Shown here: in pieces, positions 12,980 through 63,848 of the stretch
Numbering within the stretch: the first letter of the stretch is position 1
Layout: every line of letters begins with the position of its first letter
From: a virus
Lineage: Duplodnaviria; Caudoviricetes
Strand: one strand, 5' to 3'
Length of the DNA: 64,000 bases
Virus record (IMG/VR): IMGVR_UViG_3300045391_000852
Span: 6,263 to 70,262 of that record
Program-made: the position numbers and the translations under genes
Notes under the pieces: generated by a model
Told to the model about the DNA's origin: nothing
The model's database searches: none
Seen by the model: the letters and a program-made list of their open reading frames with translations, nothing else

Positions 12980-13840
12980 ATGACTGGCTTGTCAACATAC
13001 ACCGCCCAGAACCTTCTGAACTACATCACCGGGCAGACCGCCGAACCAGTGCTGCCATCTGTTTGGCTCGCGCTGTTCACTGCGTCCGGCTCCGACGATG
13101 GCACTGGCTTCACCGAAGTGACTGGCGGCTCTTATGCTCGCCTTCAGGTCGGTGGCAATGCTGCGACGAATGCCACCACCGCGTCCGGCAATGCGATCCT
13201 GCATTTCGCAAGCACCCCGGCATGGGTCACTCCGGGCATGACAGCTTACGATGCTACCACGCCAGCATCCATTCCGCTCGGCACCACTGTGTTGTCGGTC
13301 ACTTCGACCACTGTCACGCTGAGTGCGAATGCGACCGGCGCTGGCGTCGGCTCCGGCGACACTATCAACTTTTCGGCTTTCGGACGCGCGAGCGGCACCG
13401 GGCCTTCGCAGATCACCAACACTGCTGCGATCACCTTCCCTGCGGCCACCGCGTCTTGGGGCACCGTTGTTTCGTTCGGTCTGTATGACGCTTCGACGGT
13501 CGGCAACCTGCTGCTTTGGGATTGGCTCGGCAACTTCAACTGGTTGCCTTGCACCATCACGTCCGCTTCCCCTGGCGTCTTCACTGCGAAGGCCAACGGG
13601 TATGCGAACGGTGATCCGGTTGTGTTCTCGACGGAATATGGTGGCACAGCGCCCACCGGCCTCACGCCGGGCAATACGATCCAGACGGTTGCTGGCGTTT
13701 CCGGCGCGGACAACTTCAACGTCAGCGTCAATACGACTTCGACCGGCTCCGGCAACGTCCGGAAGATCACCCAGCAGTCCATTCCGACAGGCGTGACTGC
13801 ATCGTTCGCTGCCGGCGCTCTCGTTTCGACAGCGGCGTAA
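12980..13840 (+). CDS. fibre-associated structural protein
   Basis: VWLALFTA...EVTGGSYAR and ITFPAATASWGTV..FGLYDAST.GNLL motifs of phage fibre-base proteins, with two inserts. Confidence 0.65.
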   Translation: MTGLSTYTAQNLLNYITGQTAEPVLPSVWLALFTASGSDDGTGFTEVTGGSYARLQVGGNAATNATTASGNAILHFASTPAWVTPGMTAYDATTPASIPLGTTVLSVTSTTVTLSANATGAGVGSGDTINFSAFGRASGTGPSQITNTAAITFPAATASWGTVVSFGLYDASTVGNLLLWDWLGNFNWLPCTITSASPGVFTAKANGYANGDPVVFSTEYGGTAPTGLTPGNTIQTVAGVSGADNFNVSVNTTSTGSGNVRKITQQSIPTGVTASFAAGALVSTAA

Positions 13841-13876: not shown

Positions 13877-14584
13877 ATGGGCTTGTTCGCCAACCTAGTC
13901 ATCATGACATGCGCCTCAGCGCCGGGTACGGGTACCACAATTACCCTGTCCGGCGCTGCGACGGTCGGTGGCGTTCAATTTCTGACGGGAGCGCAGGCCA
14001 GCGTTACTCCCGGAGCAGTTTACGATTACGCACTGCTTGATCCGACGAATGGCGGGTGCGAGAACGGAACAATCACTTGGCCTGCGTCAGGCTTGACGCT
14101 GACAGGCCGAACGGTTGTCAATTCTTCGAATGGTAATGCAGCAATTAATGCGAGCGCTGATTCGCTGCTTTATCTTTCGCCAATTGCTTCCTCGCTCCTT
14201 GCCTTTCCGTCTGGAACGAAGATGTTGTTCCAGCAGTCTTCCGCTCCGACAGGATGGACGAAAGATACGACATTCAACGATGCTGCTTTGCGCGTCGTTA
14301 ATGGTTCGACATCGAGTGGTGGAACTAATGGCTTCTCGACTGTCAATGCGCAAACTGCTGTTGGCAACACCACTCTTTCGACTGCGCAGATGCCATCGCA
14401 CGATCATCCGTACACCAAGCCGCAAACTAGTGGCATGGCCTCATCCAATGGCGGTTGTAACTCCTTCCTGGTCGGAGGCGGTACCGCAGCGACGACCGGC
14501 GCGAATGGCAGCGGTGCTGCTCACAATCATTCGATAACGATGGACATGAAATATGTGGACATCATTATCGCGACAAGAAACTAG
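13877..14584 (+). CDS. short fibre protein with tail-collar-like domain
   Basis: FPSGTKMLFQQSSAPTGWTK and TLSTAQMPSHDH motifs. Confidence 0.7.
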   Translation: MGLFANLVIMTCASAPGTGTTITLSGAATVGGVQFLTGAQASVTPGAVYDYALLDPTNGGCENGTITWPASGLTLTGRTVVNSSNGNAAINASADSLLYLSPIASSLLAFPSGTKMLFQQSSAPTGWTKDTTFNDAALRVVNGSTSSGGTNGFSTVNAQTAVGNTTLSTAQMPSHDHPYTKPQTSGMASSNGGCNSFLVGGGTAATTGANGSGAAHNHSITMDMKYVDIIIATRN

Positions 14585-15239: not shown

Positions 15240-15555
15240 TCCAAAGGTCAAATGTCCGGCCACCGGCTTCGCGCGCAGCTGCCGAGAGATTTTGGCTGAA
15301 TGTGATTGCCCGAAGTGGGTTCACCTTCAAGGAAAAAACCCTCAGACCGGCGCTGACATCGATCAATATGGCTGTGTTGATGGTTTCCTGCCGCATCTCC
15401 TCATTGAGAATGCACTGGTTGGCCGGCAGACCGGCGCGGCAGTTGAAACGCTTCGCAATCAGATCGCAGCCGCACAACGCGGCGACCTCGGACTGATGCT
15501 GTTGGCCAATCAGTCTGAAGCTCTTCCTCTGCTATCATCCTTGCCTAAGAGCTAA
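15229..15555 (+). CDS. Cys-rich fibre-locus protein
   Basis: CP...C...CDCPKW..GKNPQTG..GC..LLIEN..QTGAAVETLRN. Confidence 0.6.
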   Translation: MLPDPKVKCPATGFARSCREILAECDCPKWVHLQGKNPQTGADIDQYGCVDGFLPHLLIENALVGRQTGAAVETLRNQIAAAQRGDLGLMLLANQSEALPLLSSLPKS

Positions 15556-17222
15556 TGGGCTGGGGTGCAGTTGGTCAGTATGCAATTGGTCAAGGACCGC
15601 TCGCTGTCTCAGGTGGCAGCGCGGTTCTGGCAGCACGCTCGCGGATTGCCGTTAAGACTTCTGCTGGCATGTCGCCAACCACTGCTTTGAAATCGATTGA
15701 CAATATTGCTGTGAAGGCAAAGGCAGGCGCGACGAATACGACGCCACTTGTTGGTCACACATCCTCGCAATTCAAGGCTCGCCTCGTCAATGCGCCGCAG
15801 GCTCGGGTTGGCGGCCGCAGTGAGGCGATGGCGAAGGCGCGAGGATTGATCGCAGGCGCAACGCCGCTCTCCGGCGCGGTGAAAGCTCAAGCGAAGATGC
15901 GAGACGGCATGACGCCATTCGCAGCGATGATTGGTCATTCATCAATTCAGGTTAAGACTTCGGATCGTTTCTTTCCATTTTGGGCAGCGCTCGCCCGGAC
16001 TGCATCACAGATCAAAGCCAAACTCGGCTTCACGCTCGTTCACACGCCTCTTTCCAGTACGACAAAGGTAGAGGCGAAAACGCGAGACGGACTGTTTGGG
16101 ACAACGTCCCTGGCGGGCATCTCATCGGTTCAAGTGAAAGCTCCGAACGATTTTCGCGGCGTATTCTTTGTGAAGGCTCGCGCGACTATTCAGGCGAAGA
16201 CTGCAGACACACTGACATTCTTCCGCTTCCTCGCGAGCAATGCAAAAGTTCAAGTGAGCGCGAAAGGCACCTCAACTCGTTTCGCGCTGCTCTATGGAAT
16301 AGCGAAGACAACAGTTCAATCGACCTTCGACACTCTCCAGCGTGTCAGGCTTTTTGGATTGGCGCGTGTTTCTTCCAATGCCAAGGCTCGCATGCGTCCA
16401 GTTGCTTTCATCGAGACGAAGGCAAGCGTTCAGACAAAAGCGAATGCTGGTTTCACTTCGCTGATTGTTCAGGTCTTTGGGTCTGCGCTAGTCGCTGTTA
16501 AGGCGAAGCTTCAGCGCAATGGTCTTCTCGATTTGATGGCGTCGGCGTATGTTCAGACCTCGGCATTCTTCAAGCCTTCGCCGGTCGCATTTGTTGAGAG
16601 TCATTCAACAGTTCAGGTGAAAAGCTCCCGGAGCTTTATCCAGCCGATCATCTTCATTACTGCTCAAGCGACATCTGCAGCTAAAGCTTCGCTTCGTTTT
16701 GCAGGCCGCACCCATCTTTTGGCTCGATCAAAGGCGACAAGCTCGGCTCGCGGAACGATGCGTTCAATTCGGCATATCTTCGGACATGCCACTGTTGCCT
16801 TGAAGGCATCGCCTAAGTTCAGTGCCATTGCTGTCATGAGCGCTCGGACCTCGATTGAGGTTAAGGCTCGCTCGGCAATGAACACGGTGACATATCTCTT
16901 TGTCGCTGGCCGGTCGAAGGCGATGGTGACATCTCGCGGCGTGGCGCTCGGAACTGTGAAGCTCGCTGCCCGGTCGAAGTTGGCTGTGAAATCAGTTTCG
17001 CATTTCTCGCCTCTTATTCAAAAGCTCGCTGGTGCAGCGCTGATCGCTGTGAAGGTGCTTTTCAAGTATGGCGTCACGCCGGTCTCAGCTTGCGCGCATA
17101 CGAAGGTTGAGAGGGTGTTTTCCTCTTCCGTCAATGATGCTTCTGCATTCGCCACGTCCATTTCTGATGCTTCGGCCTTTTCAGTGATTGCGAAGGCAGA
17201 GCGCTGTGAAGGTGAGGAATGA
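15555..17222 (+). CDS. basic 20-residue repeat protein
   Basis: About 24 imperfect 20-22 aa repeats, usually Lys at position 10. Confidence 0.7.
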   Translation: MGWGAVGQYAIGQGPLAVSGGSAVLAARSRIAVKTSAGMSPTTALKSIDNIAVKAKAGATNTTPLVGHTSSQFKARLVNAPQARVGGRSEAMAKARGLIAGATPLSGAVKAQAKMRDGMTPFAAMIGHSSIQVKTSDRFFPFWAALARTASQIKAKLGFTLVHTPLSSTTKVEAKTRDGLFGTTSLAGISSVQVKAPNDFRGVFFVKARATIQAKTADTLTFFRFLASNAKVQVSAKGTSTRFALLYGIAKTTVQSTFDTLQRVRLFGLARVSSNAKARMRPVAFIETKASVQTKANAGFTSLIVQVFGSALVAVKAKLQRNGLLDLMASAYVQTSAFFKPSPVAFVESHSTVQVKSSRSFIQPIIFITAQATSAAKASLRFAGRTHLLARSKATSSARGTMRSIRHIFGHATVALKASPKFSAIAVMSARTSIEVKARSAMNTVTYLFVAGRSKAMVTSRGVALGTVKLAARSKLAVKSVSHFSPLIQKLAGAALIAVKVLFKYGVTPVSACAHTKVERVFSSSVNDASAFATSISDASAFSVIAKAERCEGEE

Positions 17223-40505: not shown

Positions 40506-41003
40506 ATGCAAAAATATTCACTTCGTGAGTTGACGATCATTCTCGTCATTCACCTTGAGAAGAGACTATTTGAATTCGCCATGACATGCATCATGCTTGG
40601 CGAAGGCATCTTTCTCTACTTCAATGCCGCTTCGATCCGCGAGAGTGCTTTCCGTTACACCCTCGACATGCTTTCAGAAGCAACATTCATGTATCTGTTT
40701 TTTCTTTTTGGCCTGGCAAGATTGATAGCAATCATTCTCAATGGTCACTGGATGCCATGGGGCGCTATTTTCCGAATGGGAGGAGCTTTCATCGGAGCTT
40801 TGATATGGGCACAATGGTGTGCGGCGTTGTTGGTGTTGAAATCGAAGACTGGCTTGCCGCCTTCACCGGGTGTCGTAACGTACTGCGTTCTTGCACTCTT
40901 TGAAGTTGTCTCGATGTACCGGGCTTACTTAGGGGCGACGAAAGAAAATGCCAGAGAGAAACGGAACAATAGATGCGCTCAATTGGCTTTGGGAAAAAAT
41001 TAG
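40506..41003 (+). CDS. multi-pass membrane protein
   Basis: About four hydrophobic helices. Confidence 0.6.
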   Translation: MQKYSLRELTIILVIHLEKRLFEFAMTCIMLGEGIFLYFNAASIRESAFRYTLDMLSEATFMYLFFLFGLARLIAIILNGHWMPWGAIFRMGGAFIGALIWAQWCAALLVLKSKTGLPPSPGVVTYCVLALFEVVSMYRAYLGATKENAREKRNNRCAQLALGKN

Positions 41004-41394
41004 TCATCTCCCGGATGTCCCGATGCAATCCATTGCTGCTCTTATCCTTGTTGTTATCCTCGCTTTGCCGCTTTGCGTTCGCATCTGGAATAGCTGGAGT
41101 GATCTTTTTCGCCGCGATGGTGATGACCGTGAGCGTCGTCATGATCGTGACCGGAGCCGCGAGGATGATTTTGTTTACGACATTCGTAATTCGGAAATCA
41201 TCCGCCACAACCCTTGGGTCATTTCAGAATTGATCAACATTGATGCTCAAGTTCAGAACATGGTTCATATGATGACAGCGATGCGCGCAGAGCTTTCCGA
41301 AGTGAAAGCTATCGCCACCGCCGCTCGTGACAAGTCTGAACTTGTTATCCGGATGATGCGTCGGAAGCCGCCAAAGGCCGAGACAAAACGCTAA
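40948..41394 (+). CDS. membrane protein with coiled coil
   Basis: One TM, Arg/Asp-rich stretch, coiled-coil C-terminus. Confidence 0.55.
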   Translation: MPERNGTIDALNWLWEKISHLPDVPMQSIAALILVVILALPLCVRIWNSWSDLFRRDGDDRERRHDRDRSREDDFVYDIRNSEIIRHNPWVISELINIDAQVQNMVHMMTAMRAELSEVKAIATAARDKSELVIRMMRRKPPKAETKR

Positions 41395-41454
41395 GGGTAG
41401 CGATAGCATTGCTGCTGTTGCTGCCCTCCTTGGGTGTTTCCTCCCCTTAAACTT

Positions 41455-41488
41455 AAAGCCCCGGCCTCACCGCTGGGGCTTTTCTTTT
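41455..41488. terminator. bidirectional rho-independent terminator
   Basis: AAAGCCCCGG-loop-CTGGGGCTTT TCTTTT where the two gene blocks converge. Confidence 0.75.
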
Positions 41489-41877
41489 GGCGCTCGCTCT
41501 GCTGCGTCCAGTTCGATCCAAGCTTGGCCGGCAATTCCTGTGGGATAGTTCTTCGCCACCAGCTTCTTGATCAACGCAATCTCCTCAGCTGTCAAGTTCG
41601 GGTGAGCCTCGTGCTGAATTCGGAGCGCGAGGAGCCATCGCTGCGTCTTGTCTTCGCCAGACAATGTCGGCTCATCCGCATAAACCCCCAGCAATGAATT
41701 CGTCACGACGCTCCGGAGCGTGATCGGGACTGGCTTGCCATCCTTGTCGTGGAATGGCGATCCATCGATTTGCAAGAGCGGCGTCAGCGTATTGATCTCA
41801 ACTGCCTGCGCAGGCAGAGAACAAATCGCAATGAATGCTGCGTTGATGATGAATAGCTCCAAGATGATTTTCTTCAT
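41467..41877 (-). CDS. hypothetical protein with signal-peptide-like N-terminus
   Basis: MKKIILELFIINAAFIAICSLPAQA-VE. Confidence 0.6.
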   Translation of the reverse strand: MKKIILELFIINAAFIAICSLPAQAVEINTLTPLLQIDGSPFHDKDGKPVPITLRSVVTNSLLGVYADEPTLSGEDKTQRWLLALRIQHEAHPNLTAEEIALIKKLVAKNYPTGIAGQAWIELDAAERAPKEKPQR

Positions 41878-42404
41878 CACACTTTCCTTTTTCCGGGACT
41901 TGGTTTGCGGTGATAGATTTTGTCGCGTCTCGCGTTGCAATGGACAGCGCAATAAGGCTCGCCCGGTTTCGCCGGATGACCGCAATAGGTGAAATTGTCA
42001 GCACCGAAAGGCCAATGGCAGTTATGCGTCGTAAGCTCCATGAACGAAATGTGGAGTGGCGGACGGTTTGGATCAATGACCTCTTTCGGCATTGCCTTTG
42101 GCGCAAGGCGCTCGGCAGGAACATTCGCAGTTGACTTCAATGGATTTGTGAAGTTGACTGCGTGCGGATAAGAAGGAGCCTTTAGCTTACGCTTCTTTAT
42201 CGGCTTGATGACAGAGCCATTGGACTGTCGGCCTTTGAGGCGCTGTCCGAGACGATGCACAACACCAATGACTGCGTTGCGCGTGATCGTTCGATTGTAT
42301 TTCTCAAAATACATTTCAGTGATCTGAGTGGCGCTGAAAGCAGTCTTTGAAAGGATGAATTCTTTTTCTTCATCGGTGTATTTGTGTCCCAGCCTATTTG
42401 ACAT
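41877..42404 (-). CDS. gcrA: GcrA-family cell-cycle regulator
   Basis: SATQI...TRNAVIGVVHRLG N-domain; ELTTHNCHWPFG...YCG...PYCAVH C-domain. Confidence 0.88.
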   Translation of the reverse strand: MSNRLGHKYTDEEKEFILSKTAFSATQITEMYFEKYNRTITRNAVIGVVHRLGQRLKGRQSNGSVIKPIKKRKLKAPSYPHAVNFTNPLKSTANVPAERLAPKAMPKEVIDPNRPPLHISFMELTTHNCHWPFGADNFTYCGHPAKPGEPYCAVHCNARRDKIYHRKPSPGKRKV

Positions 42405-42470
42405 CTTTTCCCCGAAGGTGTTAAAGGAAAGGCGACACATCCTTCCGGGAAGTGCCGCCTTCTTAGATAA

Positions 42471-49850: not shown

Positions 49851-50113
49851 TCGCTCGCTTCCTCAATTTTTGAAATGAAATCGCCAATGTCGAATTCTTC
49901 GATAGCATCTTTGACTTCACTGAGATTGTCGATGGCTTGTTGTGCCTTCGATCCTTTGTCGCCGCTTTGAAGACCTTCAGGCATATTGTCGAGATATTCA
50001 GTCTCTTCATCGTGAGCAGTTTCAATGATGGACTTTGCTTCTTCAAGCTTGCCCTGAGCCTCGCTTAAAAGGATCGTTGCCTGACCAAGCTTCTTCCGGC
50101 GCTCTGAATTCAT
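49847..50113 (-). CDS. hypothetical protein
   Basis: YLDNMPEGLQSGDKG motif, helical. Confidence 0.7.
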   Translation of the reverse strand: MNSERRKKLGQATILLSEAQGKLEEAKSIIETAHDEETEYLDNMPEGLQSGDKGSKAQQAIDNLSEVKDAIEEFDIGDFISKIEEASE

Positions 50114-50538
50114 GGCGCTCTCTCTTCCGATGCAATAATCCCCGGTGTCTGCTTTGTGCGAAGATGCAAAATCTTTTCGCGAGCGCGATTGATCCGGCTC
50201 TTCAGTGTGCCAATCTTGATGTTGAGTTCAGCAGCTGCTCTTTCATAATCGAAGCCATCATTAATTTTCATGAGAGCTTCCCATTGATCCTTCGGGATGG
50301 AAGCGCTGAATTGATTGTCGCTCTCTTGAAACTTGAAACCAGCACTGTGTCCGCGCATGCTTGTCTTCCTTTTCGGTTGCCGGCAGAGCGCCGGGAAATT
50401 GTGACGGTGGAATGCTTCAGCTGCATAGCTCCGAAAGCTCTTGCCGCATTGGCATGTCATCTTGTCAGACCAATGCTTCACTCCTCTTCCTCCAAGAGGC
50501 AAATCCTCATGGAGCTTGATGTGAATGACTGTCATCAC
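50110..50538 (-). CDS. sigma-70 region 4 (ECF-like) HTH protein
   Basis: FDYERAAAELNIKIGTLKSRINRAREKIL; N-terminal CQC...HRH. Confidence 0.7.
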   Translation of the reverse strand: MMTVIHIKLHEDLPLGGRGVKHWSDKMTCQCGKSFRSYAAEAFHRHNFPALCRQPKRKTSMRGHSAGFKFQESDNQFSASIPKDQWEALMKINDGFDYERAAAELNIKIGTLKSRINRAREKILHLRTKQTPGIIASEERAP

Positions 50539-51351: not shown

Positions 51352-51596
51352 TTCCTTCCTTGTTTGATGAGAAGACCTTTCCCATAGAGGTCTTCATAAA
51401 AATCGACTTCAAGCTTGATGCGTTCCTCGACGCCGGGATGTGAGTAATCAGGAGCCCACACCCAAGCTCCTTCCTTTCCGTAATGGACCTTCTTGTAAGG
51501 CAGTGGCCCAATCAACAACCCCGGAGGATTGAAACCGGGCCACTGCCACATCGCATCTTCTTCAGCTTTGGTTGCCACTTGCCTCCTCCGGTACAT
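51348..51596 (-). CDS. hypothetical protein
   Basis: 82 aa ORF. Confidence 0.5.
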   Translation of the reverse strand: MYRRRQVATKAEEDAMWQWPGFNPPGLLIGPLPYKKVHYGKEGAWVWAPDYSHPGVEERIKLEVDFYEDLYGKGLLIKQGRK

Positions 51597-52146
51597 ATTG
51601 CTTCACGATCTTTTTAACGAACCAATCTGGAACTCCGGGAACGGAAAAATCGCCGGACTTATTTTTGATATTGGCGACAGCATCTCGCATCATGAATTCA
51701 CGGTCTTGTTCATCAAGACAAAGCCAAGACATGCGAGTATATATTTCCATATTCTCATGTGCCTCGATTTCCCAAGGCAGCGACGAATAAGCGAACTTTG
51801 AATTGCAGATTGCTCGCGGCCAATATTCACCTTTCCAAATCGTCCCGCCTGTAAGCTTGTCATCAAACATATCGCCTCGGAGGTATTGAGCGACATGAGT
51901 TGTCTCATGGATCAAGACGCTTCCGAACTCAACGATACCTTCGTCCGGCGAAACTGCAATAATGAAGTCATGTTCGAGCTTCGTCATAACGCCGCGCTTC
52001 GCCGGATGATCAAACCTCTCCCGGCGAAGGAAAACTGATGTGTCCTTTTTATCGATGCCGAATTCCCGGCAACAAAAACTGAATTGCTTTTGGATGATGC
52101 GTTTTTCAGGAGCCGAAAATTGATCTGACATGACCAGTGTAGGCAT
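51562..52146 (-). CDS. putative zinc metallopeptidase
   Basis: LIHETTHVAQY (HExxH) plus PWEIEA; first gene downstream of ribozyme HH-D. Confidence 0.65.
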   Translation of the reverse strand: MPTLVMSDQFSAPEKRIIQKQFSFCCREFGIDKKDTSVFLRRERFDHPAKRGVMTKLEHDFIIAVSPDEGIVEFGSVLIHETTHVAQYLRGDMFDDKLTGGTIWKGEYWPRAICNSKFAYSSLPWEIEAHENMEIYTRMSWLCLDEQDREFMMRDAVANIKNKSGDFSVPGVPDWFVKKIVKQYVPEEASGNQS

Positions 52147-52176
52147 TGTCTTCCCCTAATCCAAGGTTTTCTGATG

Positions 52177-52233
52177 GGCCTCATCAGCGAGCGTTCCACG
52201 CTCGGACGCCGGGGTTAACCCGGCGTTTCGGCC
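52177..52233 (-). ncRNA. hammerhead ribozyme type II (HH-D)
   Basis: GGCC-GAAA-CGCCGGG[UUAAC]CCCGGCG-UC / CGAGCG[UGGAA]CGCUCG-CUGAUGA-GGCC; complete core; predicted cleavage after 52205. Confidence 0.92.
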
Positions 52234-52451
52234 TGACGTTTTGCGTAAACCTGCAGAGCTTCAACAAAGGTCTTCTTCGCGTGAAGTATCGATCCCTCTG
52301 TTAGATTATCAATGCTTGCTGCATACTTACCGATGTTGCGACCAAGAATAATGGTCATTGCGATGCTGGCATCACCAACATCCATTTTCTTTTCCGAGAT
52401 AAATTTTTCAATCTCGGAAATGGCTTCAATAACTTTGACTGGCTCAGCCAT
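52215..52451 (-). CDS. hypothetical protein
   Basis: 78 aa; last codons and stop lie inside HH-D. Confidence 0.65.
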   Translation of the reverse strand: MAEPVKVIEAISEIEKFISEKKMDVGDASIAMTIILGRNIGKYAASIDNLTEGSILHAKKTFVEALQVYAKRQAETPG

Positions 52452-52463
52452 CTCTTCTCCTTT

Positions 52464-52922
52464 TCAGAACCAAACTTTATCAAGCATGAGGATCGCGCGA
52501 CCTCGAATGTCTGGATCGTTCGGACGCTTTCCCTCCATGGCGTCAGCCAGAGAGATGAGGAAAGCTTCCTTCAACATTTCACAGGTCGATTGTCCCGGCC
52601 TCTTCGGCATCTTATGGGCCTGTGATGCCGTCCAGTAGATCGCGGTGGCGATGACGTTTCGCGGGAGGTCTTTCAGCCTTCCGGTGTCGTCAACAAACAT
52701 GTCAGTCACGCCGGTCTTCGCGAGGAAGGAGTTGACATAGACATGCTCGAAATTGGCGCGACGAAAGAAAGGCACTTCAATCTTATCGACCAATTCAGGA
52801 TAATCCGGACGGCGTTGCCGGAATTCCATTTCTTTCAGGTCAGCGAAGACCTTTTCCCAATCTTCCGGCTTCGCGTCCGGTTCGATGCAGAGATACTTGG
52901 TGGTGAATTTTTTATCAGACAT
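52464..52922 (-). CDS. hypothetical protein
   Basis: Start MSDKKF. Confidence 0.65.
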   Translation of the reverse strand: MSDKKFTTKYLCIEPDAKPEDWEKVFADLKEMEFRQRRPDYPELVDKIEVPFFRRANFEHVYVNSFLAKTGVTDMFVDDTGRLKDLPRNVIATAIYWTASQAHKMPKRPGQSTCEMLKEAFLISLADAMEGKRPNDPDIRGRAILMLDKVWF

Positions 52923-52924
52923 TT

Positions 52925-53089
52925 TCACATTCCTAATGTTTCGAGGAGGAAGACGTGCCACTGGTTAGTAGTACCCCAGCGGATGCAAGCGGCAACTTGG
53001 TGTTGCGGAAAGCGCAAATCGCGATGGACTTTGAAAAAGCTCAAGTCGCGTTTCTCGTGAGACTGGATCAGATGAAATTGAGTTTCCAT
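52925..53089 (-). CDS. small hypothetical protein
   Basis: TGATG overlap; METQFHLIQSH. Confidence 0.45.
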   Translation of the reverse strand: METQFHLIQSHEKRDLSFFKVHRDLRFPQHQVAACIRWGTTNQWHVFLLETLGM

Positions 53090-53418
53090 CAATATGTCTC
53101 CTTCATCCATTTTTCGAAGGCTTCCATGATGCCGCCAACGAAAGTGAAACCATCATTGAGATTGACTGAGCCAGCAGCAAAGTCAGACCATTTCACGCTC
53201 CAATGAGGAGCAGGACCAATTGCCGGCCACCATTCGAGTTTGTCAAGATTTACATCAACTTCAAAATTGATGATCTGATTGCCATCTTTCATTTCCAGAT
53301 CAAAGAACCGATCTGGAAGGCCATGGTTGCCGTCCGTCTCGATGTAAGGCAAGACACAATCCAGCGTCCATTTCCCGGCAACATTCTTCCGAAAGATGAG
53401 ATGTTTCTTAGCCGTCAT
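53089..53418 (-). CDS. hypothetical protein
   Basis: 109 aa; ATGA overlap. Confidence 0.6.
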   Translation of the reverse strand: MTAKKHLIFRKNVAGKWTLDCVLPYIETDGNHGLPDRFFDLEMKDGNQIINFEVDVNLDKLEWWPAIGPAPHWSVKWSDFAAGSVNLNDGFTFVGGIMEAFEKWMKETY

Positions 53419-53609
53419 GCAACACTCCGGGTTGCAGCCTCGCGACCGCGCAGGACGTTCTCGTTGTAGGCATCGACCAAAGATGCTGGAGCACCGCGAA
53501 GGAACCAGTCAACACGAGATTTGAAACGATCCTTCTTGATCGCTGCGTCGAAGGCGTTGGGATCGATATGAGCCGAAGCGAGAGCTTCATTGAAGATGCG
53601 TTCAAACAT
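53415..53609 (-). CDS. small hypothetical protein
   Basis: MFERIFNEAL with GAGG RBS, downstream of HH-C. Confidence 0.6.
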   Translation of the reverse strand: MFERIFNEALASAHIDPNAFDAAIKKDRFKSRVDWFLRGAPASLVDAYNENVLRGREAATRSVA

Positions 53610-53637
53610 TTCCGTTTTCCTCTTCCAAGGTTCTGAT

Positions 53638-53695
53638 GATCTCATCAGGCCGCTCATCCAAGCGACGACCGGAGAAGCTTTCCCCGGTTTCGATC
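53638..53695 (-). ncRNA. hammerhead ribozyme type II (HH-C)
   Basis: GAUC-GAAA-CCGGGGAA[AGC]UUCUCCGG-UC / GUCGCU[UGGAUG]AGCGGC-CUGAUGA-GAUC; predicted cleavage after 53667. Confidence 0.92.
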
Positions 53696-53697
53696 TG

Positions 53698-53937
53698 TTA
53701 ACAAAAGCCAATCCACTCTCCGGCCTCGTTGCGTCCCATGTCGAGACGATCACACATGACCTTTTCGTGAGTGGATCGTTCATCCTCAAACTCATCACCG
53801 AAAATTTGCTGCATTTCTTCGCGATGCTGTTTGGCTTCAAATTCTCGATCATTGATGTCATCGATGATTTGATCATCGCTCATGCCTTTGGCACGAAGAT
53901 CATCGACCAGAGAGAGGATTGATTTGTTGATGGTCAT
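53698..53937 (-). CDS. small acidic protein
   Basis: MTINKS...; TAA directly before HH-C. Confidence 0.6.
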   Translation of the reverse strand: MTINKSILSLVDDLRAKGMSDDQIIDDINDREFEAKQHREEMQQIFGDEFEDERSTHEKVMCDRLDMGRNEAGEWIGFC

Positions 53938-53953
53938 AGTCAGTTTCCCCTTT

Positions 53954-54169
53954 TTAATTCGAGTTGTATGGAGAGATTGGAAGTGCATCAACAATATTGT
54001 AGAAACGGTTCATCTCATTCTCCAATTTATTGATTTGGCGCTGAATTTTTCCATATTGTTTATCGCCAACAATAAAGTTGTCTTGTTCTTTTTCCAAAGC
54101 GATGTGTTCACGCGTCAATTGACGCATATAGGTGCGAAGTTCAGATTGAAGCTTTTTGCTGCTGATCAT
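53954..54169 (-). CDS. small coiled-coil protein
   Basis: MISSKKLQSEL. Confidence 0.55.
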   Translation of the reverse strand: MISSKKLQSELRTYMRQLTREHIALEKEQDNFIVGDKQYGKIQRQINKLENEMNRFYNIVDALPISPYNSN

Positions 54170-54170
54170 C

Positions 54171-54239
54171 TCACTTGCCTCCATTGCGGAAGGTTTCAAG
54201 CTCGCGGCGGCGAAGATAGGCGATCAATTTTTTGCTCAT
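54171..54239 (-). CDS. 22-aa basic peptide
   Basis: MSKKLIAYLRRRELETFRNGGK with AAGGA RBS, downstream of HH-B. Confidence 0.45.
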   Translation of the reverse strand: MSKKLIAYLRRRELETFRNGGK

Positions 54240-54266
54240 GACATTTTCCTTGTCCAAGGTTCTGAT

Positions 54267-54326
54267 GATCTCATCAGGCCGCGTTCCACGCGACGACCGG
54301 GAAGCTCTCGCCTCCCGGTTTCGATC
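54267..54326 (-). ncRNA. hammerhead ribozyme type II (HH-B)
   Basis: GAUC-GAAA-CCGGGAGGC[GAGA]GCUUCCCGG-UC / GUCGCG[UGGAA]CGCGGC-CUGAUGA-GAUC; predicted cleavage after 54295. Confidence 0.92.
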
Positions 54327-54328
54327 TG

Positions 54329-54433
54329 TCAGCTGGCGAGATAGGCGATAAGGATTGAAAGGACCAATCCGAAAATCATCGGCCAATTTCGCCACTCGGC
54401 AATTTCATCTTCGGTACGAGGTTCATCACTCAT
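54329..54433 (-). CDS. 34-aa membrane peptide
   Basis: MSDEPRTEDEIAEWRNWPMIFGLVLSILIAYLAS; ATGA overlap upstream, TGA directly before HH-B. Confidence 0.55.
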   Translation of the reverse strand: MSDEPRTEDEIAEWRNWPMIFGLVLSILIAYLAS

Positions 54434-54603
54434 GATGAAATCATCCCAGTGGGATCGTACAAAATGAAGAGGCCAATAACCGCTTCAAAAGTTTCCAACA
54501 TGTGGAAGCCAATCGCATTCACCAACACGACAGCGAAGAGGCCAAGCCCACAGCAGTGCTTGTAGTGGGTGTGGTTCAGTTTGTGAGGGTCGGGAAGCTT
54601 CAT
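54430..54603 (-). CDS. small His-rich membrane protein
   Basis: MKLPDPHKLNHTHYKHCCG then hydrophobic segments; AAGGA RBS downstream of HH-A. Confidence 0.55.
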   Translation of the reverse strand: MKLPDPHKLNHTHYKHCCGLGLFAVVLVNAIGFHMLETFEAVIGLFILYDPTGMISS

Positions 54604-54633
54604 GGTCGTTTTCCTTTTCCAAGGGTTGCTGAT

Positions 54634-54689
54634 GATCTCATCAGGCGTCTCATTCCAAGACGCGACCGGCCACATGGCCGGTTTCGATC
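54634..54689 (-). ncRNA. hammerhead ribozyme type II (HH-A)
   Basis: GAUC-GAAA-CCGGCC[AUGU]GGCCGG-UC / GCGUCU[UGGAAUG]AGACGC-CUGAUGA-GAUC; predicted cleavage after 54664. Confidence 0.92.
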
Positions 54690-54940: not shown

Positions 54941-54967
54941 GAAAGAAAAGAAAAAAGATGGGGTCAA
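54941..54967 (-). promoter_or_regulatory. repeated promoter-like motif heading the ribozyme operon
   Basis: TTGACC CCATCTTTTTT CTTTTCTTTC. Confidence 0.6.
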
Positions 54968-55004
54968 AGTCAGAAAAATTGATGCGTTTTCAAAGGAAAA
55001 GCCA

Positions 55005-56696
55005 TCATTCCTCAGAAATAATGGCCTGCCGGATTTCGTCCAGCGTCAAATCGGCCAAATCCTTCTTGTTTTTGAGATTGCGCAAAATCGACCGATCTAC
55101 CGACTTGGTGGCCACGAGGTCGAAATAAGTCACTGTTCCGAGCGTCCCAATTCGGTGGGTCCGTCCGTCCGCTTGCCATCGATCTACTGCATTGAAGCTG
55201 TTCGAAAAGAAGATAACCGTTTGGCAATGGCCTTGAAGATTGAGACCAACACCGCCAGAGCGCGGATTTGAAACGAAGCATCGCGCTTTCCCGGAAAGAA
55301 ATGCATCCCTAGCAGCACTGCGTTCATTGTCGTTGCCTTCATAAACAACAAACGTCTCTCCGGCCTTCTTCAAGGCTTCAGTGATGACAGCGCGATCCTC
55401 GATGAAGCGGCACCAAATAACAATTGGCCCGGTCGATAGATCAACAATGTCCATCATCGCTTCAACGCGCTCGCCTCCAAAACGATGCATCTCACCTTCG
55501 CCGGGGAGATGGCCGCAGACAATTTGATGAAGCCGGAGGAGGCCGACTGCAGCATTGACACCGTCCACAATCGTTCCATCATCCATCTCTGTGAGGAGCG
55601 TCTTTTTCATCTCATCATAATGCTTCCGCGTCGCATTGCTCATCTCATATTCACGCACAGAATAAATCTTCGGCGGAAGGTCAATGGCCTCTTCCTTCGT
55701 CAGCCGGAAAGAATGAGGTGCGATGAGTGAATAAAGCTCTTCTGTATTTTTCTGCGCCACAACAGTCCGTCCATCCTTTCCGGAAATGCAGTAACGGGCA
55801 CGGAAGGAGGAGAGATATTTGCAACCCAGAATGAGCGGTGACAAGAATTCAAACTGAGTGAAGAGGTCCATAACATTCTTCGCTTGCGGCGTTCCGGTTG
55901 CGATCCGGCGATATGTCGCCATTTCACCAAGCTCGTTCAGCGCTCGCGTCCGGTCAGAGGCTTGGTTCTTGAAGTCGTGACTTTCATCGATGAACAGTGC
56001 CACCTTCCCGCTGTGCGTCTTCATAAACGCTTTCGCGCTCGCGAGGCCATCCTTTGTCCGAATTGCATCTGTGTTCATTGCGAAGAATGTTAGTTTCTTT
56101 GCCGGCAGCTTCCAATCAGTGATCCTCTTTTTCTTCCAAACGATACCGCTCCAAGCAATACGCTTGTCCATGTGGCGCGGTATCTCTTCATCGATCCATT
56201 GCCGATGCACACCCTTCGGCGCGAGAACGAGCACGCCAGTGATCTTCCCCCGGAGGAAGAGGATGCCGGCAGTAACAATCATGATGAAGGTCTTTCCTAA
56301 ACCAACATCGAAAAGGAGAGCGTAATATTCCCTGAACCAAGACAACCGAATGCACTTATCTTGGTGATCATATGGCGTCTCGTTGAAATTGTAGTCCAGT
56401 GGTTCGTCCGGAGCGCTCGCATGCTGCGTCGGCATTGACTGAACCTTCTCCATCTCAGTCAACTGTCCAATGCGATCCTGAAATTCAATCGCATAATCAC
56501 TCTCTTGAAGAATACGAAGGTTGGATGGGGTGCCTTCAATCTTGACAGAATTCAGTCCGTCCCAGTTCTTTCGACCGGCGAGCGAATTGATCAAACGGAT
56601 GAATGGGAAAGGAAAAGGACCGAACAAAGTGCAACGATTTTCAGACCAGATTTCTGCCTTGATCACTTTCGCAATTCCTTCTTCTTTTCGTTGCAA
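55005..56696 (-). CDS. SNF2-family (SF2) helicase
   Basis: FDVGLGKT, FIDESH, TGTP, GGVGLNL, QADGRTHRIG. Confidence 0.9.
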   Translation of the reverse strand: MQRKEEGIAKVIKAEIWSENRCTLFGPFPFPFIRLINSLAGRKNWDGLNSVKIEGTPSNLRILQESDYAIEFQDRIGQLTEMEKVQSMPTQHASAPDEPLDYNFNETPYDHQDKCIRLSWFREYYALLFDVGLGKTFIMIVTAGILFLRGKITGVLVLAPKGVHRQWIDEEIPRHMDKRIAWSGIVWKKKRITDWKLPAKKLTFFAMNTDAIRTKDGLASAKAFMKTHSGKVALFIDESHDFKNQASDRTRALNELGEMATYRRIATGTPQAKNVMDLFTQFEFLSPLILGCKYLSSFRARYCISGKDGRTVVAQKNTEELYSLIAPHSFRLTKEEAIDLPPKIYSVREYEMSNATRKHYDEMKKTLLTEMDDGTIVDGVNAAVGLLRLHQIVCGHLPGEGEMHRFGGERVEAMMDIVDLSTGPIVIWCRFIEDRAVITEALKKAGETFVVYEGNDNERSAARDAFLSGKARCFVSNPRSGGVGLNLQGHCQTVIFFSNSFNAVDRWQADGRTHRIGTLGTVTYFDLVATKSVDRSILRNLKNKKDLADLTLDEIRQAIISEE

Positions 56697-56989
56697 GCTC
56701 GTGCCGCCTCGCTCATTGTCTTGAAAAATGGCAGCTTGGCCTCTGGGTGAATATCATCACCGATAAAATTTGCCTTGTGGACAAACATCTCAGTTGAGAA
56801 GGCTGCATTCTTCCATGTCGCGGAATATGCTTTGTAGTTCGCATCGAAGAAAATATTGAATTGATAAGTGTTCCATGTCGCATACCACCATCGACAACCG
56901 TCCTTCGCGAGTTTTTGAACTAGCTCAAAAGCCCTAGGGTCTTCCCGGAGGTTGCCTTCATGCTGAGGGTAGTATTCCTTAAACCTCAT
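56663..56989 (-). CDS. hypothetical protein
   Basis: 108 aa ORF, overlap coupling. Confidence 0.5.
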   Translation of the reverse strand: MRFKEYYPQHEGNLREDPRAFELVQKLAKDGCRWWYATWNTYQFNIFFDANYKAYSATWKNAAFSTEMFVHKANFIGDDIHPEAKLPFFKTMSEAARACNEKKKELRK

Positions 56990-59955
56990 TGCTCTGCCTC
57001 CTCCGGCATCCGGCCTCCGGGGATTTGCGCGATCCCATCGACGCCTTCAATTGCGTACCCGCGCCGGGAATGCTCCTCTTTGATTGGCTCATCAATGTCT
57101 CCGAGATAACGAACTTGCGTCACACTGATCATTCTGAAATCTGGCGGGATGGTCCCTTTGATTGCATAGAGCGCCTTTCCCGGCTTGCCTCGATCAACAA
57201 TCGGACGGCCAATGCTTTCGAACATGTAACGATCAATTTTGCAGAAGACCTCATCAGTATCGTCTTCAATGAACATATTGAGCGCATCTGTTGGACCTCG
57301 AATGATACCGTCACTAATGCGGCCATTATCCTTAGCAATCTTGATGCGTTTTTGAACCTTCTGAAGTTCATTCTCGTTCAGCGGTGCGATCTTTTTCGCA
57401 ACAACAAGCACCATAACGACACCCGAGACGCCACATTGAACATCGATGACGCGCGTTGGCTTCGTGTGGATGTTGATTGCTGTCAGGTCCGGGTGGAGCC
57501 GCGCAATGGCGTCCCTAATCGGATAGAGCGTATCAATTGGCGTGACGGCTCCGGCGAGACGTTTCATCAGCGCCGCGCGGATAGGCTTTCCAGTCCGGCG
57601 ACAGTCCATAATCTCGCCGGTCATCTTTTCGCCAATTCCCTTAATGTTCATCAGCGGACCAACAAGGATTTTCTTTCCATCCTTCTCGCGAAACGTCCAC
57701 CGATCTGAAGAGTATTCAATGTCCACCGGGACATAGTCAATGCCTTCTTCAGCAAGTTCGCGCAGCATCGCGATCTGCTTCATAGGATTGTCTTCTGCAT
57801 CGAGCGTTGCTGCCGCAAATTCGAGAGGATAATGTGCCTTGAGCCAGCAAGTCCAATAAGACACAATCCCGTAGGCCACAGCATGCGACCGATTGAAGGC
57901 CCAAGAACCGAAGGTGTTGACCTGATCCCAAATCTGCTTCGCGATATTTTCCGGGACGCCTTGCGCGACTGCACCAATGCGAAATTTCTCCCAATAGCCA
58001 GCGAAGAATTCATCACCAAGGCTCTTCGACATTGCCTTGCGAAGCTCCGATGTATCCTCCCAAGACAACTGCCCCATCTCGCGAGCGATACGCATGACTG
58101 TCTCTTGGAACACCACAATGCCGAAAGTGTCCTTTGTGAGTTCAGTCAACATCGGGTGCAGCGTCGTGATTGCTTCCTCGCCTCGCCGCCGCCGCACCCA
58201 AGCGTTTGCGCCGCCTGTGGCCATCGGTCCCGGTCGCGCCAGAGCGGTAATTGAGATCATGTCCTCAAGGTTCTCAACCTTGATCTGCTTAGTCAGAGAT
58301 TTGAGGGCTTGCCCGGTGAATTGGAAGATGCCAGAGAAGCGGCCTTCATTGAGAACAGCAAACGCCTTCGGATCATCCAGCGGTATGGTTTCGAGAAAGC
58401 CACTTACATCCGGCTTGCCAATCAACTGAAGCGTCCGTTCAAAGATAGACAGCTGCGTGAGGCCGAGCGCGTCAATCTTCAACAGGTTTAGTTCTTCAGC
58501 GTCCTTCTTGTCGCACATCGTTGCGCCGGTTCGCGCATCAACGCCAATAAATTCTGTGATTGATTTTTCTGTGATGATGATGCCGGCAGCATGCTGCGAC
58601 GAAGTGTTGGGGTGGCCTTCCATCTTCGCAGCAATCTTTGCCTCTGGGAATTCCTCCAAGAGAGCACGACCGGCTGGTGTTGATGTCATTGCATCTTCCA
58701 GAGCCTGCAACGCGCGGCTGTCGCCGGAGGATCGTTCGATGACACCTTCAAGCGTCCGCTCCACCATCCACTTCGGAATTTGAAGTGAAGCTCCGACTTG
58801 GTTCAGAGCAGAGCGCGGCTTAAACATGCCGACTGTCCCGAGACGCGCAACATGCTCCCGGCCATATTTGTCTTCCACGTACTCAAAAACCATATCGCGG
58901 CGCTTGTCGCTAAAATCAATATCGATATCAGGCAAGTCTTTTCGATTGATGTCAATGAACCGTTCGAAGATGAGGCCATACGGTATTGGATCAATAGCAG
59001 TAATCCCGAGAAGATAGCAAACCAAAGAGCCGCAACTGGAGCCACGGGCGGGCCCAACCACCATCCGAGACTTAGCCCAGTTGATAACATCTGCGATGAT
59101 ATAAAAATAATCCCCAAAGTTCTTTTCATCGATCAACCTCAATTCGCGATCAAGTCGCGCTGCATATGTTTCATTTTCAATATCACACCCGAGCTTCGCT
59201 GCGCCTTCCTCGCACATCTCGCGCAGTGTTTTCTTTTTCTCCGGAACTAGCAGCACAGCCTTTTTCAGTTCGGCGCGGGAATTCTCAATGATGAAATTCC
59301 GGTTCACCAGCGCGGCGTCCTGCTCTTCCGGCGCGGCAATATAGCGCGTGGCCTCGCGCCATTCGTCATCAGAAAGGATGTGCTGAGGATAGGTCTGAGT
59401 GTTGGAACGGAACCCGAGTGCCACCCGGTAAAGCTCCAGTTGGTCCGCGACCGGGTAGAAGTTATCGCTCCGGGCCACAAAGGAGTACCCGGCTCGCTTC
59501 GCGGCGTTGTAGAAGCCCTTAGAAACAGCCGGGGACAGCCCTATAAAGAGGTCCGGGGGAGCGCCGGACGCGGGCATTAGGTCGAGCCGCGCGGCGTGCC
59601 CGGCGATCTTGAACACCCCCGTAGCGGCCAGCGCCTCCTCATAGGTCAGGGCTGCATGGTTATTCTTCGTCGCGCTCCGGATCAGCTCATTGAGCCGCGC
59701 CAGATCATCCTTCGCGAAGAATGTCCAATAATCGAGTGTTGGCTTTTTCGCTTCCAGATCGGTGGCGACCGCCAATTCAACACCGAAGACAGGCCGGGTG
59801 CCTTTCTTCTTGCACAGCTTTGCCCATTTCACAAACCCGAAGGTGGTGCAAGTGTCAGCGATTGGGTATGCTGGCAAACCGATTTCTGTGATGCGTTTAT
59901 AAACATCATCAAGATGACCGAAGGCGCGGCGGAAGCTATACCCAGTCCTGATCAT
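56986..59955 (-). CDS. dnaE: DNA polymerase III alpha subunit (family C)
   Basis: PHP-like N-terminus; GPARGSSCGSLVCYLLGIT; FERF; LPDIDIDF; HAAGIII; KIDALGL; AFNRSHAVAY. Confidence 0.95.
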   Translation of the reverse strand: MIRTGYSFRRAFGHLDDVYKRITEIGLPAYPIADTCTTFGFVKWAKLCKKKGTRPVFGVELAVATDLEAKKPTLDYWTFFAKDDLARLNELIRSATKNNHAALTYEEALAATGVFKIAGHAARLDLMPASGAPPDLFIGLSPAVSKGFYNAAKRAGYSFVARSDNFYPVADQLELYRVALGFRSNTQTYPQHILSDDEWREATRYIAAPEEQDAALVNRNFIIENSRAELKKAVLLVPEKKKTLREMCEEGAAKLGCDIENETYAARLDRELRLIDEKNFGDYFYIIADVINWAKSRMVVGPARGSSCGSLVCYLLGITAIDPIPYGLIFERFIDINRKDLPDIDIDFSDKRRDMVFEYVEDKYGREHVARLGTVGMFKPRSALNQVGASLQIPKWMVERTLEGVIERSSGDSRALQALEDAMTSTPAGRALLEEFPEAKIAAKMEGHPNTSSQHAAGIIITEKSITEFIGVDARTGATMCDKKDAEELNLLKIDALGLTQLSIFERTLQLIGKPDVSGFLETIPLDDPKAFAVLNEGRFSGIFQFTGQALKSLTKQIKVENLEDMISITALARPGPMATGGANAWVRRRRGEEAITTLHPMLTELTKDTFGIVVFQETVMRIAREMGQLSWEDTSELRKAMSKSLGDEFFAGYWEKFRIGAVAQGVPENIAKQIWDQVNTFGSWAFNRSHAVAYGIVSYWTCWLKAHYPLEFAAATLDAEDNPMKQIAMLRELAEEGIDYVPVDIEYSSDRWTFREKDGKKILVGPLMNIKGIGEKMTGEIMDCRRTGKPIRAALMKRLAGAVTPIDTLYPIRDAIARLHPDLTAINIHTKPTRVIDVQCGVSGVVMVLVVAKKIAPLNENELQKVQKRIKIAKDNGRISDGIIRGPTDALNMFIEDDTDEVFCKIDRYMFESIGRPIVDRGKPGKALYAIKGTIPPDFRMISVTQVRYLGDIDEPIKEEHSRRGYAIEGVDGIAQIPGGRMPEEAEQ

Positions 59956-62801: not shown

Positions 62802-63382
62802 GCTGCGAGCGCTCCAGCATTGTCGGTGCGAATGAAGTCAGCCAGTTCGGGCGAGAGCCGTGTCAATGCAGTTTCCGGCGCTCCGATACGCTCCCGGAGA
62901 GCTTCTGCTGCCGGCCAGACCTCCAAGATGTCTTCGAAATAACGGCTGTCCCAAATCAACGCGCGATAAGCCTGCTTCTTTGTCTCAACAGCCTTCTCGA
63001 AAATCAACTTGTTGCGAGCGTATTCCAACACCAATTCAGCAGTGTCTGCATCATAGGGATAGACGCGGCTCTTGCAGCTTCCGGTGCAAGGAACAAGTGG
63101 TGCTTCTTCTTCGGTGATGAATTCGAAACCAATGACAACATCGCTGCTCCCATTATCAACGCGAGCGCCTTTGATGCATTGATCATTCCGCGCCACACTG
63201 TACTTGTCGAGAAGCTTCATGTCACTTGGCGGATATTTCGCCTCCACAACTGACCGGACGGCGATGCAAGCCGCATTGTAGCTCGCGATCATTGCCATGT
63301 GTTCTTCCTCACACTTCACATTCTCTTCCGCGAAGGTGATAAGAGTGCGGCGATGATATTGATTCAAACGCTTCTTAGCCAT
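62798..63382 (-). CDS. Nmad5-like protein
   Basis: KYPPSDMKLLDKY and LEVWPAAEAL resemble nucleotide modification associated domain 5 (from memory). Confidence 0.5.
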   Translation of the reverse strand: MAKKRLNQYHRRTLITFAEENVKCEEEHMAMIASYNAACIAVRSVVEAKYPPSDMKLLDKYSVARNDQCIKGARVDNGSSDVVIGFEFITEEEAPLVPCTGSCKSRVYPYDADTAELVLEYARNKLIFEKAVETKKQAYRALIWDSRYFEDILEVWPAAEALRERIGAPETALTRLSPELADFIRTDNAGALAA

Positions 63383-63848
63383 TGTTGTAACTCCTTCCCT
63401 TGATTTGAAGGGCTGTGACGCCAGCCTTCTGAAATGCGTCACAAACCTCTGGATGATCATCAATGATAAACAAAACGCTTTCAGAAATTTCGCTCCCAAA
63501 CCGGCGTTCGGCAAGCTCAATTTTCAACTGTGCACTTGGGCGATATTCATCGTCCGGACGCATCAGCAAGTCATCAAAGAGATGCCAGATGTTTGCTTTC
63601 TTCAAGCGCTCCTCGGAAATGGTCCGCCATTTCTCCGGCCTGGCCGTCAAGCCAATGATGTTATATCCGGCATAATGCATTGCCTCCAAAAGCTCAACAG
63701 CATCGAGAGCCATTTCATCTTCTGCTGAAGAGGCGTGATAAGCATCCCACCGGCCAGTGTGCATCGCCTCCGGAATCATGTGATCCCGGCGCGATGCGTC
63801 CATAAGCGTGTGGTCCAGATCGAACAACACCACATTTCGTTTCTTCAT
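63375..63848 (-). CDS. HAD-family phosphatase (T4 PseT phosphatase-domain-like)
   Basis: LFDLDHTL, LTARP, LLMRPDDEYRP, IIDDHPEVC. Confidence 0.8.
   Translation of the reverse strand: MKKRNVVLFDLDHTLMDASRRDHMIPEAMHTGRWDAYHASSAEDEMALDAVELLEAMHYAGYNIIGLTARPEKWRTISEERLKKANIWHLFDDLLMRPDDEYRPSAQLKIELAERRFGSEISESVLFIIDDHPEVCDAFQKAGVTALQIKGRSYNNG

Follow-up and report, generated by a model that had tools for sequence, protein, structure and literature searches.

The 64,000-nucleotide (nt) stretch analyzed here (the window; positions 6,263 to 70,262 of the IMG/VR Caudoviricetes record IMGVR_UViG_3300045391_000852) carries on its minus strand, between positions 52,177 and 54,689, four short elements that resemble hammerhead ribozymes and alternate with blocks of small genes. 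This locus raises the question of whether these elements are true ribozymes and, if they are, what they would do to the transcript that contains them. The four elements are almost certainly hammerhead motifs under selection. The best joint explanation of the data, which we consider likely, is that they are genuine type II hammerheads transcribed with a minus-strand block of small genes that follows the genes for a DnaE-type polymerase and an SNF2-family helicase. Judging from sequence, they probably also self-cleave in vivo and thereby process that transcript.

To identify the elements, we scanned the window with a pattern that encodes the type II succession of 3′ core strand, cleavage triplet, and 5′ core heptamer. 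Exactly four matches were returned, all on the minus strand, compared to 0.04 expected from shuffles, and the same four were the sole matches in the complete genome of 70,262 base pairs (bp). They are hammerhead 1 (54634..54689, 56 nt, with stems I, II, and III of 8, 4, and 7 pairs), hammerhead 2 (54267..54326, 60 nt), hammerhead 3 (53638..53695, 58 nt), and hammerhead 4 (52177..52233, 57 nt). Each reads, in order, a 4-nt stem II strand, GAAA, the stem III hairpin, GUC, the stem I hairpin, CUGAUGA, and a complementary 4-nt stem II strand, such that stems I and III are capped by loops and stem II is open, as is characteristic of the type II permutation. The stem III hairpin is G+C-rich and closed by an A–U pair. 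Under the acceptance rules given in the methods of PMC3088659, all four copies have the required core (C3 U4 G5 A6 N7 G8 A9, G12 A13 A14, and H17), present as CUGAUGA, GAA, and C17 following U16.1, and all four have Watson–Crick pairs adjacent to it (G–C at 10.1–11.1, G–C or C–G at 1.1–2.1, and A–U at A15.1–U16.1). The best Rfam match of every copy was the type II family RF02276 (23.8, 25.1, 20.9, and 24.9 bits for hammerheads 1 to 4, the value for hammerhead 3 being that obtained when it was searched alone). A first-pass annotation of this DNA had described four minus-strand elements with a full core in type II order, and both the pattern scan and the structure parse bear this out. It had further placed the cuts after positions 54664, 54295, 53667, and 52205 for hammerheads 1 to 4, leaving leaders of 60, 55, 57, and 58 nt before the next ATG; a script check of the GUC triplets and start codons returned exactly these values. 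The UGGA that it reported in loop I is present in all four copies.

Are these elements maintained for the structure that they form? In an alignment of the four copies, all 17 pairs common to stems I, II, and III form in every copy, and 12 of the 17 have changed on both sides, in compensatory fashion. On each of five measures, the observed value exceeded that of all 500 shuffles, and sliding the pairing partners by one to three columns as a control dropped pairing to 32–48%. Stem II, for example, is GAUC/GAUC in hammerheads 1 to 3 and GGCC/GGCC in hammerhead 4. When five elements from relatives (described below) were added, giving nine elements from three phages, 98% of the cells were paired and 13 of the 17 pairs were double-changed. 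Covariation thus supports all three helices and upholds the earlier observation that stems I and III remain paired though their sequences differ and that stem II covaries. All 11 conserved core nucleotides are unchanged in all four copies despite the divergence of the stems. Such a combination of an invariant unpaired core with diverged stems is what a ribozyme, as opposed to mere hairpins, would be expected to show.

The array stands immediately after the replication genes on the same strand. The source record carries direct terminal repeats and is rated complete, and the window covers most of it. Virion genes occupy most of the plus strand from ∼5 to 41 kilobases (kb), while from ∼41.5 kb onward the candidate open reading frames (ORFs) lie mainly on the minus strand and include replication and accessory genes. 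Upstream of the array on the minus strand are the gene for a DnaE-type DNA polymerase III alpha subunit (56986..59955; Pfam DNA_pol3_alpha, phrog_405) and that for the SNF2-family helicase (55005..56696; Pfam SNF2-rel_dom and Helicase_C, phrog_62). The four ribozymes, which fall within 2.5 kb, are all intergenic and on the coding strand, and each is followed by a ribosome-binding site and an ATG. Hammerheads 2 and 3 each start 2 nt past the upstream stop codon (54329–54331 and 53698–53700, respectively), and the stop codon of the ORF upstream of hammerhead 4 (52215–52217) sits in the stem III loop. The array in this way delimits minus-strand blocks of two, three, and five ORFs: two small overlapping ORFs of 57 and 34 amino acids without a family match between hammerheads 1 and 2 (54329..54603), three small ORFs of 22, 71, and 79 amino acids with only weak family matches between hammerheads 2 and 3 (53698..54239), and five ORFs of 64, 109, 61, 152, and 78 amino acids without an informative family match between hammerheads 3 and 4 (52215..53609). 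The first ORF past hammerhead 4 (51562..52146, minus strand, 194 amino acids) matches PHROG families of unknown function. Further downstream are many small ORFs and genes for a sigma-like protein (50110–50538), a DUF2786/DUF7168 protein, and a topoisomerase-like protein. The 22-amino-acid ORF, the first past hammerhead 2 (54171–54239, minus strand), stops 1 nt short of the next ORF's start codon, and it may be a leader peptide or a translational coupling device and not a protein gene.

Each ribozyme starts at or just past the preceding stop codon and ends ∼30 nt before the next ribosome-binding site. From this arrangement we infer that its three-stem fold would form as RNA polymerase passes and that the RNA would be cut after the C of GUC. 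The upstream piece would then have the stem III hairpin, rich in G+C, and a 2′,3′-cyclic phosphate at its end, and the downstream piece would carry a 5′-hydroxyl on the base that opens the stem I hairpin and continue through a nearly identical 55–60-nt leader to the ribosome-binding site. Cutting at all four sites would split the transcript into a 5′ leader of ∼250–280 nt, three pieces 369, 628, and 1462 nt long, and what remains on the 3′ side, and this splitting would uncouple the stability and translation of the pieces. The transcription of the block, its cleavage in vivo, and the effects on stability and translation are in this scheme predictions. The compact array of four sites with near-identical leaders is well suited to asking whether ribozyme cutting sets the relative stability and translation of mRNAs.

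Where would this transcript begin? A promoter-like repeated motif lies on the minus strand at 54941..54968, ∼250 nt upstream of hammerhead 1. It consists of TTGAC followed by a T/C-rich 12-mer, and three minus-strand copies stand upstream of gene blocks in the whole genome (4811–4838, 44059–44086, and 54941–54968); the three copies align and have the 12-mer exactly in common. Allowing up to one mismatch, we found five matches to the 12-mer compared to 0.87 expected. The motif is partly kept after the helicase gene of a related phage whose helicase is 49% identical (L096, ∼11680–11710). It is possibly a phage-specific promoter. The sigma-like protein noted above is encoded by the same phage. 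Because of the promoter-like motif upstream, the function of hammerhead 1 may be to shorten a 5′ leader and not to detach the block from the helicase message. The first-pass annotation had proposed that one polycistronic early mRNA is cut into sub-operons with hairpin-bearing 5′ leaders; the cutting into sub-operons fits both the anatomy of the locus and the literature, whereas the presence of the promoter-like motif makes the notion of one early mRNA uncertain. The 244-nt stretch from the motif to hammerhead 1 is not unusually structured (z = 0.2). A candidate ORF in this stretch has no counterpart in L096, and the window and L096 leaders align poorly.

To ask whether hammerheads recur at this position in other phages, we used an alignment of helicase homologues to fetch 160 loci from IMG/VR and metagenomes, all of which went through a structure-aware script. 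The 41 best-matching loci were additionally searched with a covariance model derived from the four window copies. In two relatives, the orthologous helicase gene is followed downstream by type II hammerheads. The first, the metagenomic phage L096, has three (11861–11915, 12699–12763, and 13426–13492, plus strand), which begin ∼220 nt past the helicase gene and each abut the upstream stop codon; these copies have a 3-pair stem II, A at the variable position 7, and a canonical pseudoknot, and the first two flank a DUF2786/DUF7168 gene. The second, L014 (52% helicase identity, with a 63-kb genome rated complete), has a near-identical pair ∼2.8 kb past the helicase gene (14479–14537 and 15442–15500, plus strand) that flanks a DUF932 gene, and both of its copies have C instead of U at core position 4 (U4C). 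The window presents a clean, canonical-core example of a phage gene block punctuated by ribozymes, and hammerheads downstream of the helicase gene are a feature kept in related phages.

Other searches for relatives returned little. Exact-pattern matches to the core and conserved tail in L005 (IMG/VR) and in L012 and L013 (GTDB genomes) were due to chance, with no hammerhead present, as was a match to RF02276 of only 13 bits in the relative G001. A blastn search of the 2.9-kb region against GenBank phages gave no match, and the DnaE protein is at most 38% identical to those of cultured phages, leaving this phage with no close cultured relative. Helicase homologues 64–71% identical occur among the protein matches listed. 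A single-protein search with the helicase in IMG/VR yielded only relatives of 25–26% identity, without hammerheads. A look-up of RNA data sets containing the region listed none, and one soil DNA run compared to the region gave two spurious matches of ∼36 nt only. Six loci with helicases 25–26% identical (L006–L011) each carry an S-adenosylmethionine (SAM) riboswitch (RF00162, ∼60 bits; for example, at 16864–16987 on the minus strand of L008).

Several observations weigh against the favored explanation, and we consider them together. The first is that all four copies score under the RF02276 gathering score of 37 bits, and at the gathering threshold Rfam reported no hammerhead in the window. The check with Rfam hammerhead models that the first-pass annotation had called for therefore succeeded in part, in that RF02276 recognizes every copy, and failed in part, in that all are below threshold. 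Compared to the RF02276 consensus, the window copies have the same permutation, the same core, and a UGG-containing stem I loop, but their stem II has four pairs instead of ∼2, their stem I is shorter, and they are without the 4-pair pseudoknot. No hammerhead passed the gathering threshold in the relatives either, the L096 and L014 copies included. Because even the pseudoknot-bearing L096 copies are missed, we conclude that the Rfam type II threshold is narrow for this phage group and that such arrays are under-annotated. The second observation is that the closest helicase relatives fetched, L094 and L095 (57–58% identity), have no hammerheads in the DNA screened, and the occurrence of hammerheads among the relatives is for this reason patchy.

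The third observation concerns the pseudoknot between loop I and the 3′ tail, which occurs in the majority of type II hammerheads but not in all of them (PMC3088659). We found no such pseudoknot of at least four Watson–Crick pairs in any of the four window copies. The best helix between loop I and the tail has two to three Watson–Crick pairs, or three to four when wobbles are counted (shuffled-tail p 0.76–1.0). As a positive control, the same test recovered the L096 pseudoknot, with five to six pairs including one G–U (four to six Watson–Crick), from tail position 0. All four copies could form a three-pair contact of UGG with the UCA directly after stem II; both of its sides are invariant and thus provide no covariation. 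Because the pseudoknot that usually supports fast cleavage is absent, fast cleavage at cellular magnesium would not be assured.

What occupies the 3′ segment of the window copies? The ∼30 nt from stem II to the ribosome-binding site are nearly invariant among the four copies despite the divergence of the stems, and the alignment and computed folds define four conserved leaders on the minus strand (54604..54633, 54240..54266, 53610..53637, and 52147..52176 for hammerheads 1 to 4). In all four, the leader opens with an invariant hexamer complementary to the first six core nucleotides, and folds predict a weak four-pair mini-hairpin that overlaps the ribosome-binding site. The leader of hammerhead 1, which includes invariant alignment columns, holds the hexamer, a conserved 8-mer, and the mini-hairpin. 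For the four window copies and the two L014 copies, the computed minimum-energy structure of an RNA ending just past stem II is the hammerhead fold. With the full leader added, the minimum-energy fold of these same six RNAs swaps stem II for a hairpin that buries the core, and in the window copies this fold is more stable than the best hammerhead-compatible fold by 2.3–6.4 kcal/mol, in energies that leave out hammerhead tertiary contacts. This competing fold is the last of the adverse points. The 3′ cleavage product is computed as two adjacent hairpins starting from its first nucleotide. We considered, and dropped, binding of a CsrA-like protein to the repeated GGA motifs of the loops, as there was no CsrA family match among the small ORFs tested.

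The absence of the canonical pseudoknot and the greater computed stability of the competing hairpin would be expected if the elements were structured intercistronic spacers that cleave little or not at all and serve as mRNA-stabilizing hairpins or as structures that decouple ribosomes. The U4C core of L014 points in the same direction, since U4C is a known natural variant with considerably lowered activity in vitro (PMC3088659). We nevertheless regard this explanation as improbable: selection for hairpins alone would not keep unpaired core residues, and all 11 core nucleotides are intact in all four copies. Moreover, natural core variants, including U4C, keep their function in vivo.

A different explanation, compatible with hammerheads that process the transcript, is that the ribozymes are deliberately slow or conditional. 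The hexamer would pair with the core such that only a fraction of the transcripts is cut, either during a brief interval that ends once the tail has been synthesized or upon opening of the tail hairpin. The proportion of long to processed mRNA would be tuned in this way, and after cutting the hairpin would lock the product. We hold this to be possible, though less probable than its opposite. In its favor, the hexamer is invariant while the stems have diverged by 12 compensatory pairs, and it is retained in copy 4 despite another stem II and another loop size. The 3′ segment of L014 differs and is complementary to a shifted part of its own core, with one substitution kept as a wobble pair, and the core-sequestering hairpin appears in the free minimum-energy fold of every one of the six elements. 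The complementarity has a shuffled-tail p of 0.013–0.07 per element; these values are modest, and the four window copies cannot count as independent. The invariance of the core also precludes covariation, so the hairpin is not proven. Finally, the core-complementary tail was not found in the L096 copies, and the energy models ignore hammerhead tertiary structure.

We postulate, tentatively and at about the same odds as for slow cutting, that ribozyme and leader form a standardized cassette of ∼90 nt in which a built-in conformational switch replaces the loop I/3′-tail pseudoknot in this lineage. So long as the transcript extends no further than stem II, the hammerhead would adopt its fold and cut, after which the five or six nucleotides transcribed next would pair with the core. 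Two stacked hairpins would stand at the start of the released mRNA, making its religation impossible, and whatever sequence lay upstream, this mRNA would have the same short leader and ribosome-binding site. If this is correct, copy 1, with a conserved phage promoter motif ∼250 nt upstream of it, would be a natural 5′-UTR (untranslated region) insulator. We found no description of a core-complementary 3′ hexamer in the literature searched, which is not proof of absence, and the hexamer, as a candidate natural self-inactivating switch, is amenable to testing.

The hexamer also bears on whether the conserved feature is DNA and not RNA. The core and the 3′ hexamer together make a 6-bp inverted repeat, stem II is a 4-bp palindrome, and the flanked genes differ among related phages, all of which might be expected of protein-binding palindromes or of recombination sites that bound exchangeable cassettes, with the likeness to hammerheads being secondary. 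We judge such a role at the DNA level to be very unlikely. The two arms of the inverted repeat are separated by 4 nt in three copies and by 5 nt in the other, a change that a hairpin loop tolerates but that would be expected to upset a dimeric DNA-binding site. In addition, compensatory changes that keep G–U pairs point to selection at the RNA level, and the elements are uniform in strand and in position relative to the genes.

If the four elements are self-cleaving hammerheads, as we favor, is the array a new kind of system? The first-pass annotation had held the architecture to be undescribed, and this is refuted by prophage clusters reported by Perreault et al. (2011, PLoS Comput Biol; PMC3088659), in which multiple hammerheads flank single genes or short gene blocks. 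Those authors proposed that the ribozymes process long phage transcripts to operon- or gene-length mRNAs, and they found that three tandem arrays, taken from Clostridium scindens, Azorhizobium caulinodans, and Agrobacterium tumefaciens, cleave in vitro, the last giving the expected products in Escherichia coli too (PMC3088659). As in those clusters, several elements lie here on the coding strand within a few kb of one another, between genes of phage origin, and the flanked genes are not constant. They differ from those clusters in that four copies are present and the genome is that of a free 70-kb phage with terminal repeats instead of an integrated prophage; in that they lie on the replication-module strand just after the helicase gene; and in that they are without the loop I/3′-tail pseudoknot and have a near-identical leader with a core-complementary hexamer. 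The array is thus a new example and not a new kind of system, and the functional inference of the first-pass annotation repeats a published hypothesis. Only the candidate switch and the promoter-proximal first copy might exceed published knowledge.

Natural type II hammerheads are known to cleave in cells: those of Desulfovibrio vulgaris do so as detected by cyPhyRNA-seq, with both fragments captured from total RNA (PMC8782182). Like the elements described here, they are type II motifs located by hypothetical or phage-like genes, and two of them are ∼250 nt apart; they are, however, isolated or paired copies in a bacterial chromosome. The purpose of bacterial and phage hammerheads is still undefined according to a 2019 review (PMC6765202).

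Could neighboring ribozymes instead excise the cassettes between them, with the ends rebuilding a hybrid hammerhead and ligating to give circular or spliced RNAs? Copies 1 to 3 share a self-complementary stem II, the two ends of an excised piece could rebuild a complete motif, and hammerhead cleavage is chemically reversible. This outcome is nonetheless highly improbable, as clusters of this type gave no circular or spliced products when Perreault et al. looked for them (PMC3088659). Stem II of copy 4 does not match the others, the core-sequestering hairpin would disfavor religation, and no RNA ligase or RtcB-like gene was present among the ORFs screened. A 157-amino-acid HAD phosphatase encoded elsewhere on the minus strand (63375–63848) matches the PNKP phosphatase domain (PF25109, E 3.7e-12), and the other ORFs screened for RNA-end healing or sealing gave no kinase or RNA ligase family match. 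Because a ThyX gene is nearby across the genome end, a role for the phosphatase in nucleotide metabolism is as likely as one in RNA end healing.

Cutting of a transcript at defined structured sites has counterparts outside the natural hammerheads. The early transcript of phage T7 is processed by host RNase III, and RiboJ is an insulator engineered from a type III satellite-RNA hammerhead. In each case, as in the processing proposed here, a polycistronic or variable-leader transcript is cut to give defined, hairpin-bearing ends. The agents differ: T7 relies on a host protein enzyme, whereas the ribozymes described here would cut without protein, and RiboJ is of engineered type III origin, whereas these are natural type II elements.

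Two further features of the genome bear on the host. On the minus strand, an ORF at 41877–42440 has a GcrA cell-cycle-regulator domain (Pfam PF07750, E 1.7e-18). On the plus strand, a full-length match to the mmgR/suhB small RNA (RF00519), an alphaproteobacterial family, lies at 41416–41495 with 61.5 bits compared to a gathering score of 41, directly after the last plus-strand ORF (40948–41394). The GcrA-like gene and the mmgR-family small RNA point to an alphaproteobacterium as the probable host. That a phage carries a copy of a host regulatory small RNA is also a point of interest in itself.

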